DNA of 20,832 bases from a virus (taxonomy: Duplodnaviria > Heunggongvirae > Uroviricota > Caudoviricetes): IMG/VR virus record IMGVR_UViG_2690316002_000015, one strand, 5' to 3'. The first letter of the stretch is position 1. Every line of letters begins with the position of its first letter. A program made the position numbers. Shown in pieces: positions 12,001 through 18,000 of the stretch.

Positions 12001-15000
12001 CGAGGGAGGTTCCCCTAAAATGAGGGACATCCCTCAAAACGAGGGAAAATCCCCTAAAACGAGGGATAAAACATCCCTCAAATTAGGGGATTGCTATCCC
12101 TCAAAACAGGGGGACACAAAAGACACTATTACAAAAGAAAAAAGAAAAGATTATTCGTCCGAGAATTCTGGCGAATCCTCTGACCAGCCAGAAAACGATC
12201 TTTCTGTGGTTAAACCGGATGCTGCAATTCAGAGCGGCAGCAAGTGGGGAACAGCAGAAGACCTGACCGCCGCAGNNNNNNNNNNNNNNNNNNNNNNNNN
12301 NNNNNNNNNNNNNNNNNNNNNNNNNNNNNNNNNNNNNNNNNNNNNNNNNNNNNNNNNNNNNNNNNNNNNNNNNNNNNNNNNNNNNNNNNNNNNNNNNNNN
12401 NNNNNNNNNNNNNNNNNNNNNNNNNNNNNNNNNNNNNNNNNNNNNNNNNNNNNNNNNNNNNNNNNNNNNNNNNNNNNNNNNNNNNNNNNNNNNNNNNNNN
12501 NNNNNNNNNNNNNNNNNNNNNNNNNNNNNNNNNNNNNNNNNNNNNNNNNNNNNNNNNNNNNNNNNNNNNNNNNNNNACCAAAACTCGACCTGACAAACAC
12601 TGACTGGATTTACGGGGTGGATTTATGAAAAACATCGCCGCACAGATGGTTAACTTTGACCGTGAGCAGATGCGTCGGATCGCCAACAACATGCCGGAAC
12701 AGTACGACGAAAAGCCGCAGGTACAACAGGTAGCGCAGATCATCAACGGTGTGTTCAGCCAGTTACTGGCAACTTTCCCGGCGAGTCTGGCTAACCGGGA
12801 CCAGAACGAACTGAATGAAATCCGCCGCCAGTGGGTTCTGGCTTTCCGGGAAAACGGGATCACCACAATGGAACAGGTTAACGCAGGAATGCGCGTAGCC
12901 CGTCGGCAGAATCGACCATTTCTGCCATCACCCGGGCAGTTTGTTGCATGGTGCCGGGAAGAAGCATCCGTTATCGCCGGACTGCCAAACGTCAGCGAGC
13001 TGGTTGATATGGTTTACGAGTATTGCCGGAAGCGAGGCCTGTATCCGGATGCGGAGTCTTATCCGTGGAAATCAAACGCGCACTACTGGCTGGTTACCAA
13101 CCTGTATCAGAACATGCGGGCCAATGCGCTTACTGATGCGGAATTACGCCGTAAGGCCGCAGATGAGCTTGTCCATATGACTGCGAGAATTAACCGTGGT
13201 GAGACTATACCTGAACCAGTAAAACAACTTCCTGTCATGGGCGGCAGACCTCTAAATCGTGTTCAGGCGCTGGCGAAGATCGCAGAAATTAAAGCTAAGT
13301 TCGGACTGAAAGGAGCAAGTGTATGACGGGCAAAGAGGCAATTATTCATTACCTGGGGACGCATAATAGCTTCTGTGCGCCGGACGTTGCCGCGCTAACA
13401 GGCGCAACAGTAACCAGCATAAATCAGGCCGCAGCTAAAATGGCACGGGCAGGTCTTCTGGTTATCGAAGGTAAGGTCTGGCGAACGGTGTATTACCGGT
13501 TTGCTACCAGGGAAGAACGGGAAGGAAAGGTGAGCACGAACCTGATTTTTAAGGAGTGTCGCCAGAGTGCCGCGATGAAACGGGTATTGGCGGTATATGG
13601 AGTTAAAAGATGACCATCTACATCACTGAGCTAATGACAGGCCTGCTGGTAATCGCAGGCCTTTTTATTTGGGGGAGAGGGAAGTGAACGATAGCTACCG
13701 ACAGTTTGAAAACTGGTGGTCAAAAGACAAAAGCCAGTTCACGGGAGACGATGAATTAAAAGAGTTTGCCTGGGTGATATGGCAGGCATCGCGCTCTGCT
13801 ATTGAACTGGATATCGACTGGCCCGAATCGAATGACGACCTTTGGAAAGATGGTGAAGAAGGTGCTTATGCGATGGGTTATGAGGATGGGCGTGACAAAA
13901 CGGTAATTGCAGTAATGAAAGCCATCAGGGCCGCAGGAATCAAAGAAAAGAATTTCGATTAAGCAAATATCACTTCAATAAATCGCTTTTAAGGCATCAC
14001 AATCGCTCTGTGGTGAGGTAAGCACGTGCAAGGCATGCCGATAAGCAGCGAGAATGAAAAATGCGTCAGAATGCGTTTGAGGAGGTTTTAAGAAATGAGT
14101 ACGATAGCTGAGCTTGTCAGGGCTAATTTTCGTGAAGAGTTGGTGCGTTGGTATCGGTATCGTTCATCGTCCAGTTTGCCGCTTGATGAGTTGTATGAGC
14201 ATTCACCTGCCGCACGACGCTATCCGCGTGACCGTGTTCTTCGACGGTTGTTCAAACTCAACAATGAGTTTCAGCGCAACAGAATTATCCGGAGTCTGGA
14301 TTTTAAGTGAAGGAGTGAGCATGAGCGACCTATCATTAACCCAGCCAAAGCTAAAAGAATGTCCGTTTTGCGGCGGTAATGCTCGTCTGTGGGTTGAGGC
14401 CGGAATAAATATTGATGTGTGGGGCTATGCAGAATGTGACCTCTGTGAAGCCAGGGGGGGCATGGGCACCATCAGTTGCTGCGGCGGCTGAAAAATGGAA
14501 CCGGAGAGCAGGAGATGAAGCAAACCTTTCTGCTTCGCAACGAAGCAATCAGAAATAACGCCATAGACGCCATTCTCTCACTACCCATCGACGACAAGTC
14601 ACCCCACGAAGTCCACGTTAAAGAACCCAAGCGCAGCAAAGCGCAGAATGACCGCATGTGGCCGATGCTGAACGATGTTTCGCGTCAGGTGCTATGGCAT
14701 GGTCAACGGCTGGCGCCGGAAGACTGGAAAGACCTGTTCACTGCCCTGTGGCTTAAGACCAAAAAACTGGAGCAACGAAGTGTGCCTGGTATCGACGGTG
14801 GCGTTGTCATGCTTGGCGTGTGTACCAGCAAAATGCGGAAGGCCAGCATGACTGAGCTTATCGAAATCATGTTCTGGTTCGGCTCAGAGCGCAACGTGCG
14901 GTGGAGTGATGACTCTTGGCGAGAGTATGAATGGTCACAACGAAAAGGGAGAGCTGCATGACTATCAAATCAAATACGCCATCACACGACAAGGACTGCT

Positions 15001-18000
15001 GGCAAACGCCGCTTTGGCTTTTTGATGCACTGGATATTGAGTTTGGATTCTGGCTGGATTCGGCAGCGAGCGACAAAAATGCTCTGTGCGCTCACTGGTT
15101 AACTGAGGCCGACGACGCGCTAAATTCTGAGTGGATAAGCCACGGTGCAATCTGGAATAACCCACCGTACAGCAATATCAGGCCGTGGGTGGAAAAAGCC
15201 GCTGAGCAGTGCATACAACAGCGACAGACGGTAGTGATGCTTGTGCCAGAGGATATGTCAGTCGGATGGTTCAGCAAGGCTCTGGAGAGTGTTGACGAAG
15301 TTCGCATCATCACTGATGGACGGATTAATTTTATCGAACCATCGACAGGGCTGGAGAAGAAGGGAAACAGCAAAGGCTCCATGCTGCTGATTTGGCGACC
15401 GTTCATCAGTCCTCGACGAATGTTTACTACTGTATCCAAAGCGGCATTGATGGCGATCGGGCAGGGCGTCAGGAGGGCGGCATGAGGCGACAGCAAAGAA
15501 GCATCACCGACATCATCTGCGAAAACTGCAAATACCTTCCAACGAAACGCTCCAGAAATAAACGCAAGCCAATCCCAAAAGAATCTGACGTAAAAACCTT
15601 CAACTACACGGCTCATCTGTGGGATATCCGGTGGCTAAGACATCGTGCGAGGAAAACAAGGTGATTGACGCGATGATTTATTCGGGGCTATATTCCTCAC
15701 GCGCCAGCAAAATCTGGCGTCGGGATTAGCACCCCGGATGTTTACGGAGCGATATGAGACGCGCCCGCGTCTTTTTTCATATCGTTTGCACAGTCACATT
15801 CGCGATTTATGGCGGGCTGTGTGGGGGAGCTGAAAGGCTCGCCGGTTTCCGTACCCGGTAGTGCTAACCCCGCACAGTTCGCCACCATGATGATTAGCAC
15901 CTGACGGTGGCGATAATGTCCAAATGTACGGAGTTATCGTTATGGCCACTCAGATTTCTGTCGAAACTCTTTCCCCAATTACACACAACCAAATTCCCGT
16001 TATCACTACCGAGTTACTGGCACAGCTTTACTGTACCGAGATCAACAACATCAAAGTAAATTACACCCGTAATTCCGAGCGTTTTGTTGAGGGTAAACAC
16101 TTTTTCAAGGTTGTTGGTGATGAGTTGAAAATTTTGCGGGTTACTTTAAGTAACTCACAAAATTTGCAACCATCTTTAAGAGGGTTACAAATTTCCCCGA
16201 AAGCCCGCTCCCTCATCCTCTGGACAGAACGCGGAGCAGCCCGTCACGCCAAAATGCTCGAAACCGATCAGGCGTGGGAAGTGTTCGAAAAACTGGAAGA
16301 CTGCTATTTCAGCCAGTGCGAGAAAAATACTGGCAAACAAGAGAAGAAGCTCAACGGGCTTTCCGCAAAAGAAACAGACAGCCTTGTATGGCTGTGGGAT
16401 TATGCTAACCGCTCACAGGCATTATTCCGCGAATTGTATCCAGCGCTAAAGCAAATTCAATCGAACTATTCCGGCAGATGTTACGACTACGGTCATGAGT
16501 TCTCGTATGTTATTGGAATGGCGAGAGACGTTTTAATCAATCACACACGAGATGTTGATATTAATGAGCCAGACGGACCAACGAATCTTTCCGCATGGGT
16601 AAGGCTTAAGAACAAAGAATTACCTCCTTCACTACATCGCTACTGACAATTGACAACTTAACAAACCCAGCTTCGGCTGGGTTTTTTATTGGTGAATTTT
16701 CAATATGAGAGGACATGACAATGAACGAGCTGATAAATAGCAACGTCATCAAAATTACCAGCATTGAAATCTCTGAGCTTACAGGTAAGCGTCATGACAA
16801 TGTGAAACGTACTATCGAAATGCTGGCTAAAAATGGTGTTATCCGACATCCTCAAATTGAGGATTGTGGAAGAATCAATGGGTTAGGCTTAAATCAAAGT
16901 TTTCGTGTGTATGTATTCGAAGGCGAACAAGGTAAGCGAGACAGCATTATTGTCGTTGCCCAGTTGTCGCCGGAATTCACCGCTCGTCTTGTTGACCGTT
17001 GGCGAGAGCTTGAAGACGCTGCGGTTAATATCCCCAAAACTCTACCAGAAGCGTTGCGCCTTGCTGCTGATCTTGCTGAGCAGAAAATGCAACTGGAAAA
17101 CCAGCTCGCAATTGCCGCACCTAAAGTTGAGTTTGCCGATCGCGTTGGCGAGGCCAGCGGAATTTTGATTGGAAACTATGCAAAGGTTGTTGGTATTGGT
17201 CCAAACAAACTGTTTGCGTGGATGCGCGAACACAAAATCCTTATTGCTTCAGGTTCCCGGCGCAATGTGCCAATGCAGGAATATATGGATCGCGGCTATT
17301 TCACAGTGAAAGAAACAGCGGTCAATACAAATCACGGAATACAGATATCGTTCACCACAAAAATCACCGGGCGTGGTCAACAGTGGCTGACCAGAAAGCT
17401 GCTAGATAACGGAATGCTTAAAGTAACAGGGGAGGCTGCTTAATGGCTAAACCAGCGCGAAGGAAATGCAAAATCTGTAAGGAATGGTTTCACCCGGCAT
17501 TCTCAAATCAGTGGTGGTGCAGCCCGGAACACGGAACTAAATTAGCGCTCGAACGACGAAATAAAGAACGCGAAAAGGCGGAAAAAACAGCAGAGAAGAA
17601 ACGACGACGAGAGGAGCAGAAACAGAAAGATAAAATTAAGATTCGAAAACTCGCCTTAAAGCCCCGCAGTTACTGGATTAAACAAGCCCAACAAGCCGTA
17701 AACGCCTTCATCAGAGAAAGAGACCGCGACTTACCATGTATCTCGTGCGGAACGCTCACGTCTGCTCAGTGGGATGCCGGACATTACCGGACAACTGCTG
17801 CGGCACCTCAACTCCGATTTGATGAACGCAATATTCACAAGCAATGCGTGGTGTGCAACCAACATAAAAGCGGAAATCTCGTTCCGTATCGCGTCGAACT
17901 GATTAACCGCATCGGGCAGGAAGCAGTAGACGAAATCGAATCAAACCATAACCGCCATCGCTGGACTATCGAAGAGTGCAAGGCGATCAAGGCAGGGTAC

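Follow-up and report, generated by a model that had tools for sequence, protein, structure and literature searches.

The question raised by this locus is whether a run of small genes between ren and ninE of a lambdoid phage works as an anti-restriction island. The phage genome is IMG/VR record IMGVR_UViG_2690316002_000015, and the whole stretch that was analysed, 20,832 nucleotides (nt), is referred to here as the window. The original prediction described an island inserted in the nin region, composed of two unrecognised open reading frames (ORF1 and ORF2), a Lar-like restriction-alleviation gene and a Dam-type methyltransferase gene, and it proposed the two ORFs as anti-defence factors on account of their neighbours. 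This study was led to a different answer. The best explanation as a whole, with the gene roles given below, is probably that the segment is the left half of a nin region of the 933W/VT2-Sakai type, present as a mosaic allele.

Between ren and ninE lambda has only ninB, ninC and ninD, as the original prediction held and as the lambda annotation bears out, but the alignment shows a mosaic replacement of these three genes, in the common 933W/VT2-Sakai arrangement, and not an inserted island. The left flank from P onwards (12602-13685) is 97.9% identical to lambda, and base 13685 corresponds to lambda 40642, two bases 5' of the lambda ninB ATG. From 15489 (lambda 42097, inside ninE) the window aligns with lambda again, with 95.6% identity over 15489-15669. 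The intervening 1803 bp (13686-15488) stand in for the 1454 bp of lambda 40643-42096 that hold ninB-ninC-ninD, and the NinB protein of the window shares 44% identity with lambda NinB. By these alignments, 13686-15488 is a classic lambdoid mosaic replacement, and each of its two joints falls at a gene boundary. After O, P and ren, all of the lambda type, come tR2 and then seven tightly packed plus-strand ORFs including ninE. The features are as follows.

13323-13613, plus strand: ren, the left flank, named "protein ren" in a 99.9% identical genome by the Prokaryotic Genome Annotation Pipeline (PGAP), and inside the lambda-identical block
13610-13687, plus strand: hydrophobic ORF of 25 amino acids (aa), "ninA homologue", spanning tR2, with the translation MTIYITELMTGLLVIAGLFIWGRGK
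13639-13672, plus strand: tR2, a rho-independent terminator with an 8-bp stem (6 G-C) and then a T run, from a terminator scan
13684-13962, plus strand: ORF1, homologue of 933W L0091, PF26207/phrog_343, GTG start, acidic, 92 aa
13963-14094, no strand: intergenic spacer of 132 nt, 43% GC
14095-14310, plus strand: ORF2, DUF7301 (PF23975)/phrog_1785, basic, helical, 71 aa
14321-14558, plus strand: lar-like gene, frameshifted; the frame stops at 14491 (56 aa) and the remainder lies in the +1 frame
14454-14460, plus strand: G7 homopolymer, the +1 frameshift site; intact alleles have G6
14515-14961, plus strand: ninB/orf recombination mediator, divergent allele (PF05772, 162 bits)
14958-15485, plus strand: phage N6-adenine methyltransferase of the Dam type, M.EcoVT2Dam allele (PF05869, 218 bits; TIGR01712, 263.6 bits)
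15482-15664, plus strand: ninE, the right flank (PF05322, 146 bits)

The terminator predicted after ren was found at the expected place and matches lambda tR2. Its hairpin is identical in sequence to lambda from 40596 onwards, the T tract and the position after ren also match, and a tR2 homologue is annotated in Sf6. The 25-aa ORF that lies over the terminator shares an ATGA with the end of ren and a GTGA with the beginning of ORF1. It is also conserved in lambda, and it is the annotated ninA homologue in 933W record Y10775.2 and gene 45 in Sf6. It may be translated as a small membrane peptide, or it may be terminator sequence only. The mention of a ninA homologue in the 933W record made NinA a candidate identity for ORF1, which was ruled out, as the label belongs to this 25-aa ORF.

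The segment is common among relatives of this phage. At a query coverage of at least 80% the 1.9-kb segment was found in 107 phage records, mostly Shiga toxin (Stx) 1a and Stx2 converting phages, at 95-99% identity, and, at the same coverage, in 440 of 5426 complete E. coli genomes. Its identity is 98.7% with VT2-Sakai and 98.1% with 933W. In the 99.9% identical genome PGAP names the genes, in addition to ren, as a hypothetical protein, a DUF7301 family protein, a Lar family restriction alleviation protein (frameshifted), recombination protein NinB, a phage N-6-adenine-methyltransferase and NinE. Stx phage sequences have contained this segment since 1999, and PGAP, Pfam and PHROGs already name those of its genes that can be recognised. 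The outcome is routine annotation, and the practical gain is in corrections to the lar and Dam readings.

The argument by association was examined through the gene arrangements of relatives. Five arrangements were seen in close relatives: ORF1-DUF7301-Lar-NinB-Dam; DUF7301-Lar-NinB-Dam, with ORF1 missing; ORF1-NinB-NinE, with the other genes missing; ORF1-DUF7301-NinB, with a different 62-aa ORF in the place of Lar; and ORF1-DUF7301-NinB-Dam. ORF1, DUF7301, Lar and Dam are therefore independent cassettes and not a co-inherited island, and the guilt-by-association argument of the original prediction loses most of its force. Neither Lar nor Dam was found beside distant PF26207 or DUF7301 genes in the contexts that had Pfam hits or record annotation. 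Among contexts with ORFs only, two (L178 and L181) have a Dam-like ORF after ninB. The scan of genome contigs for these neighbourhoods yielded 7 loci only.

The exchange of cassettes has also left a trace in the sequence. Six ORF1 homologues (P0013, P0018, P0020, P0023, P0028 and P0031) end in …EANIHASQRSNQK, which is the tail of intact Lar, in phages without DUF7301 and Lar. About 40 nt over the start of ninB (14515-14558) therefore act as a common recombination joint for different upstream cassettes. In addition, the slot between the PF26207 gene and ninB holds, depending on the prophage, a 62-aa ORF, hydrophobic ORFs of 63 and 84 aa or a Cys-rich ORF of 81 aa (L066/L065, 3221-3409; L177, 3665-3856; L180, 3749-4003; L182, 3854-4099). 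This slot is a hypervariable cassette site. Enterobacterial lambdoid nin-region DNA was also observed in three metagenome-assembled genome (MAG) records labelled Collinsella, Bacillota and Cellvibrionaceae (L176, L177 and L181), one of which, L176, encodes an ORF1 homologue with 94% identity over the matched part; the presence of nin-region DNA in these records is probably binning contamination.

The two ORFs described as unrecognised belong to catalogued families, and their positions and compositions, acidic and Trp-rich for ORF1 and Arg-rich for ORF2, were borne out. ORF1 has an isoelectric point (pI) of 4.4, a net charge of -9.5 and 6 Trp, and it matches phrog_343 over residues 1-92 (E=4e-29). 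Its assignment to PF26207 ("Phage_phiTE_015") was precomputed on cluster representatives 98-100% identical to ORF1, and phiTE_015 itself was retrieved with a member of the family as the query. ORF1 is 97.8% identical to VT2-Sakai orf29 and 933W L0091, and in more diverged pairs the ratio of nonsynonymous to synonymous substitution rates (dN/dS) is 0.12-0.19. ORF1 is a real protein under purifying selection. Its profile found 456 proteins at E<=0.001 among 1.84 billion cluster representatives, and the 150 matches listed are nearly all standalone proteins of about 50-160 aa. The conserved parts are the N-terminal SREQFEAW helix, the WQASRAAIE segment and the C-terminal AIRAAGIKVK; the acidic Trp-rich middle (DIDWPESNDDLWKDGEEGAYAMGYEDGRDK) is found in the ORF1 subfamily only and is absent from the wider family. 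When 76 diverse members of PF26207 were scanned against Pfam and PHROGs, neither an annotated family nor a domain fusion came up. The AlphaFold2 model of ORF1, built from the family alignment, has low confidence, with a predicted local distance difference test (pLDDT) score of 66.5; Foldseek found no match to it in the PDB at E<=0.001, and phmmer found nothing among PDB sequences even at E<=10. Nor was a likeness to DNA mimics of the Ocr or ArdA type found among PDB chains or by Foldseek, although with a model of such low confidence a structural resemblance may have been missed.

The location of PF26207 genes bears on a second possibility, that ORF1 is a phage recombination or replication accessory factor working with NinB/Orf. 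The gene follows the replication module in prophages of Hafnia, Cronobacter, Atlantibacter, Pluralibacter, Pseudocitrobacter and Salmonella and in Sf6, and 0-3 small variable ORFs lie between it and ninB (or a NinB-sized ORF) in the same lambdoid prophages. It thus keeps its place upstream of ninB across genera despite different replication modules. The virulent phages phiTE and PAK_P4 carry it in early clusters of small genes, close to those for DNA polymerase, a NinX homologue, HNH and dCMP deaminase, which also speaks for such a role. However, the conserved lambdoid order may reflect shared module ancestry and not function, there is no annotated NinB near PF26207 in phiTE and PAK_P4, and ORF1 has no DNA-binding or enzymatic signature. 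An accessory role in recombination or replication is unlikely, and the mosaic nin-region explanation, in which ORF1 is one cassette among several, is preferred.

ORF2, with a pI of 10.8 and 16 Lys and Arg residues, matches PF23975 with 91.4 bits (cutoff 27) over residues 1-64 of 71 and phrog_1785 with E=2e-33. The named DUF7301 members are all from Enterobacterales (Escherichia, Salmonella, Citrobacter, Enterobacter, Cronobacter, Serratia, Kluyvera and Jejubacter) and are always small and standalone, and YPRDRVLRR is invariant in 17 aligned sequences. ORF2 is a real gene conserved across Enterobacterales. Its AlphaFold2 model (pLDDT 75.1) shows two long helices (residues 4-25 and 44-70) joined by short ones. 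This model had no Foldseek match at E<=0.001 in the PDB or among the viral structures of BFVD, and phmmer against PDB sequences gave nothing even at E<=10. The structural comparison proposed for the two ORFs in the original prediction therefore returned no match for either. Distant DUF7301 members lie in nin-like regions with Ead/Ea22, HNH, dATP/dGTP pyrophosphohydrolase and unknown ORFs.

Two observations on this family can be added. Some prophages of the Stx type (L025, L010 and related loci) have, besides the usual DUF7301 gene, another copy of it that has diverged to 45% identity (2319-2486) and lies upstream of the ORF1 homologue. A metagenomic protein of 68 aa (P0112) has a Cro/YdaS-like N-terminus fused to a DUF7301 C-terminus exactly at YPRDRVLRRL. 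A kinship of DUF7301 with Cro/YdaS, suggested by weak matches (P0150-P0153), was rejected as an artefact of this chimeric sequence in the query alignment.

The Lar-family zinc-ribbon gene named in the original prediction is present, but it is frameshifted in the window and probably encodes no working Lar there. The lar frame runs from the ATG at 14321 to a stop at 14491 and encodes 56 aa ending in GGMGTISCCGG, while it is the +1 frame beyond the G7 run that encodes the conserved C-terminus of Lar (…AWAPSVAAAAEKWNRRAGDEANLSASQRSNQK). Deletion of one G from this run restores a 78-aa protein that ends at 14558. The repaired protein scores 62.3 bits with TIGR03655 (cutoff 39.6) and 41.3 bits with PF14354 (cutoff 28.6), and the 56-aa product scores 25.9 with PF14354, under the 28.6 cutoff. 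By these scores the gene is placed in the Lar family and its encoded product would be a fragment. PGAP likewise annotates lar as a frameshifted pseudogene in the 99.9% identical genome. The fragment keeps both CxxC pairs of the zinc ribbon (CPFC, residues 14-17, and CDLC, residues 39-42), whose cysteines align with those of RalR. The E-x-W-N-[KR]-R helix (AAAEKWNRRA) is out of frame in the window and is found in the +1 frame only.

The known biology of RalR helps in judging this loss. RalR is reported to be a toxin with non-specific DNase activity and without an inhibitory effect on restriction, and mutation of either K52 or its neighbouring segment abolishes activity (PMC4041452). The "restriction alleviation" label of the prototype is disputed. 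The frameshift removes the part of the protein that aligns with RalR K52 and the adjacent segment. Because the C-terminal helix aligned with the K52 region is dropped, the truncated lar product most likely does nothing in this window, as far as the alignment allows. No match to RalA or another small RNA of Rfam was found near lar in 13500-15700 at E<=1, where the presence of a RalA model in Rfam was unconfirmed.

The Dam-type gene overlaps ninB and ends at 15485, as predicted; the annotated start at 14958 gives a 4-nt ATGA overlap, and a longer ORF from 14931 is probably not used. Its scores with PF05869 and TIGR01712 are far above the cutoffs (28.1 and 97) and cover the full length, the catalytic NPPY motif is present in the translation (WNNPPYSN), and PADLOC matches the protein with orphan methyltransferase models. 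The protein is 98.9% identical to VT2-Sakai orf32, with 2 amino-acid differences. Radlinska and Bujnicki reportedly cloned M.EcoVT2Dam in 2001 and showed that it methylates GATC. The VT2-Sa enzyme has been named as the orphan Dam homologue M.EcoVT2Dam, and lysogens that carry it had no motif beyond those assigned, with an activity indistinguishable from host Dam at GATC (PMC6602927). By its near identity, the window protein is almost certainly a GATC enzyme. The new adenine methylation motif anticipated in the original prediction is unlikely because of the 98.9% identity to M.EcoVT2Dam, and a lysogen methylome would be uninformative. As a separate observation, GATC occurs 50 times in the whole window against about 79 expected (length/256, a crude figure that ignores composition), and GATC-poor regions have been described in prophages of Shiga toxin-producing E. 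coli (PMC6602927).

These results can be set against the reading of the segment as a working counter-defence island, in which Lar and Dam neutralise restriction and the new anti-defence proteins are DUF7301 and ORF1, the latter perhaps an acidic mimic of DNA. There is something to be said for it: genes of the Lar and Dam families are present, ORF1 is strongly acidic, the slot between PF26207 and ninB is hypervariable, as accessory and anti-defence hot spots often are, and delayed-early timing would suit such genes. However, several results count against it. First, lar is frameshifted here and in 933W, which is a viable phage. Secondly, the prototype RalR is reported as a DNase toxin without restriction inhibition (PMC4041452). 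Third, the acidic Trp-rich stretch of ORF1 is not conserved family-wide, and neither protein family keeps company with Lar or Dam in its distant members with Pfam-annotated neighbours. In addition, Foldseek against the PDB showed no structural likeness to Ocr, ArdA or any solved structure, and neither PADLOC nor PHROGs gives a functional label for ORF1 or DUF7301. PADLOC-DB had no match for ORF1, DUF7301, Lar, NinB or Ren, NCBIfam had nothing for ORF1 or ORF2, and a literature search on DUF7301, PF26207, phiTE_015 and the nin region with anti-defence returned no relevant paper (matches to L0091 were unrelated). A working island is improbable, and an anti-defence role for either of the two ORFs is doubtful to the same degree. 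The PF26207 and DUF7301 families are, all the same, very common, with members in virulent phages and in the genomes of hundreds of pathogenic E. coli, and an assay of their role would be useful, though nothing in these results sets them apart from the many other uncharacterised nin-region genes.

The frameshift itself was followed across records. An uninterrupted 78-aa Lar-like protein is found in 117 of 119 phage records, and a match in two pieces in EDL933-Stx and Min27 only. Both 933W records (AF125520 and Y10775.2) have G7 and VT2-Sakai has G6; EDL933 chromosome records match the G7 sequence exactly, and the same G7 allele is present in three 933W-related records. Of 80 distinct IMG/VR loci, G6 was counted in 52 and G7 in 5, and in E. 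coli 22 of 491 records contain a sequence at least 99% identical to the G7 version. At least five flank haplotypes carry G7, and in three of them G6 copies also occur whose 760-bp flanks are identical. Recurrent slippage and sequencing error in the homopolymer would both give this pattern, which does not tell them apart. A further reading of it, a contingency (phase-variable) switch for a potentially toxic Lar/RalR-like protein, would account for the sole occurrence of G6 and G7, for the haplotypes with both alleles, which point to recurrent change, and for G7 in 933W and those E. coli records, but it is very unlikely, as efficient slippage would call for a longer run than 6-7 G, only a minority of alleles (about 4-9%) have G7, G5 and G8 alleles were not seen and homopolymer errors in draft assemblies would yield the same pattern. 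Very unlikely too is the combined proposal in which the slot between PF26207 and ninB is a counter-defence hot spot, ORF1 (through its acidic middle) and/or DUF7301 are new inhibitors or triggers of immunity and the lar G6/G7 tract is a contingency switch for a protein whose expression is costly or toxic.

Under the preferred explanation, a mosaic nin region of independent cassettes, the segment would most likely be transcribed only from pR, as delayed-early message, once N antitermination has carried transcription past tR2, and its genes would probably be silent in a repressed lysogen. This expectation follows from the packed and overlapping genes (ATGA and GTGA), the start just after tR2 and the lack of an internal plus-strand promoter, as a promoter scan found no promoter-like site on the plus strand inside the segment. 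Rfam at a permissive threshold (E<=1) over 13500-15700 found nothing in the 132-nt spacer or antisense to lar. One promoter-like site was seen on the minus strand (14311-14284, TTCACT-16-GATAAT, 9 of 12 matches), pointing leftwards from a position just ahead of the start of lar and antisense to the 3' end of DUF7301; promoter-like sites in the region are no more frequent than expected by chance.

Once expressed, Dam would methylate GATC adenines on replicating phage DNA, duplicating host Dam, and might protect progeny DNA in, or on transfer to, hosts with enzymes that cut unmethylated GATC. NinB would act as the Orf recombination mediator, and lar would have been inactivated in this window by a +1 G slip in a G6 tract. 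ORF1 is a long-standing resident of early clusters, among the first genes after the replication module in lambdoid prophages, and DUF7301 is one of the interchangeable cassette genes in the slot before ninB. Our best guess is that both bind a partner rather than catalyse, and that they would modulate early phage or host DNA transactions. Binding could be through the conserved terminal helices and variable acidic middle in ORF1 and through the basic helices in DUF7301, possibly to nucleic acid. Anti-defence is one possibility among several for these two proteins.

Several points weigh against this account. A truncated Lar with a zinc ribbon could retain or gain some activity, and a sequencing error in this assembly could have produced the G7 run, although three 933W-related records share the allele. 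The window Dam allele is two residues off M.EcoVT2Dam, and its GATC specificity is carried over from that enzyme, and the dependence of the segment on pR and N is in the same way taken from lambda. The binding role suggested for ORF1 and DUF7301 is drawn from their size, their charge and the absent enzymatic signature, and the AlphaFold models of the two, with pLDDT scores of 66 and 75, have modest confidence and gave no structural match.

Other features of the window were recorded outside the segment. Just after ninE lies a c4-ant immunity module of the P1/P7 type, with ant at 15924-16646 and three plus-strand Rfam matches above the gathering score: c4-a1b1 (15688-15740), isrK (15701-15777) and C4 antisense RNA (15805-15889). 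Further on are three tRNA genes (19108-19356), STnc100 (19436-19628, plus strand) and the anti-GcvB small RNA AgvB (19629-19690, minus strand); this region (19108-19690) usually precedes the toxin and late genes in Stx-type phages. Masked runs of N are present at 12276-12576, inside the O gene, and at 19981-20297, inside an ORF at 19838-20488.

The segment can lastly be compared with known systems. ORF1 is a typical full-length member of the PF26207 family, set apart by its acidic Trp-rich middle segment, and ORF2 is a typical full-length member of the DUF7301 (PF23975) family. The repaired Lar-like protein is 36% identical over 58 residues to Lar/RalR of the Rac prophage, a type I toxin, and shares with it the CxxC...CxxC ribbon and the E-x-W-N-[KR]-R helix, but it scores 27.6 with the RalR equivalog model NF007260 against a cutoff of 113 and is far from an equivalog. 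In addition, Rac RalR adjoins recET, whereas the window gene lies in the nin region and is frameshifted. The Dam protein shares its family models and NPPY motif with M.EcoVT2Dam, an orphan Dam of the phage T1/HP1 type, from which it differs at the two residues noted above. The nin region of lambda (ren-tR2-ninB-ninC-ninD-ninE) resembles that of the window in its flanks, which are 96-98% identical, in the position of tR2 and in the presence of ninB; lambda is without the L0091 homologue, DUF7301, lar and dam, and the window is without ninC and ninD. The closest likeness is to 933W (L0091-L0094) and VT2-Sakai (orf29-orf33), which share with the window the order L0091 homologue, DUF7301, lar-like gene, ninB, dam and ninE and differ from the segment by few substitutions only. 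The G7 frameshift in lar is common to the window and 933W, while VT2-Sakai has an intact lar and, upstream, an HK022-type O and a DnaB-like P instead of the lambda-type O, P and ren.

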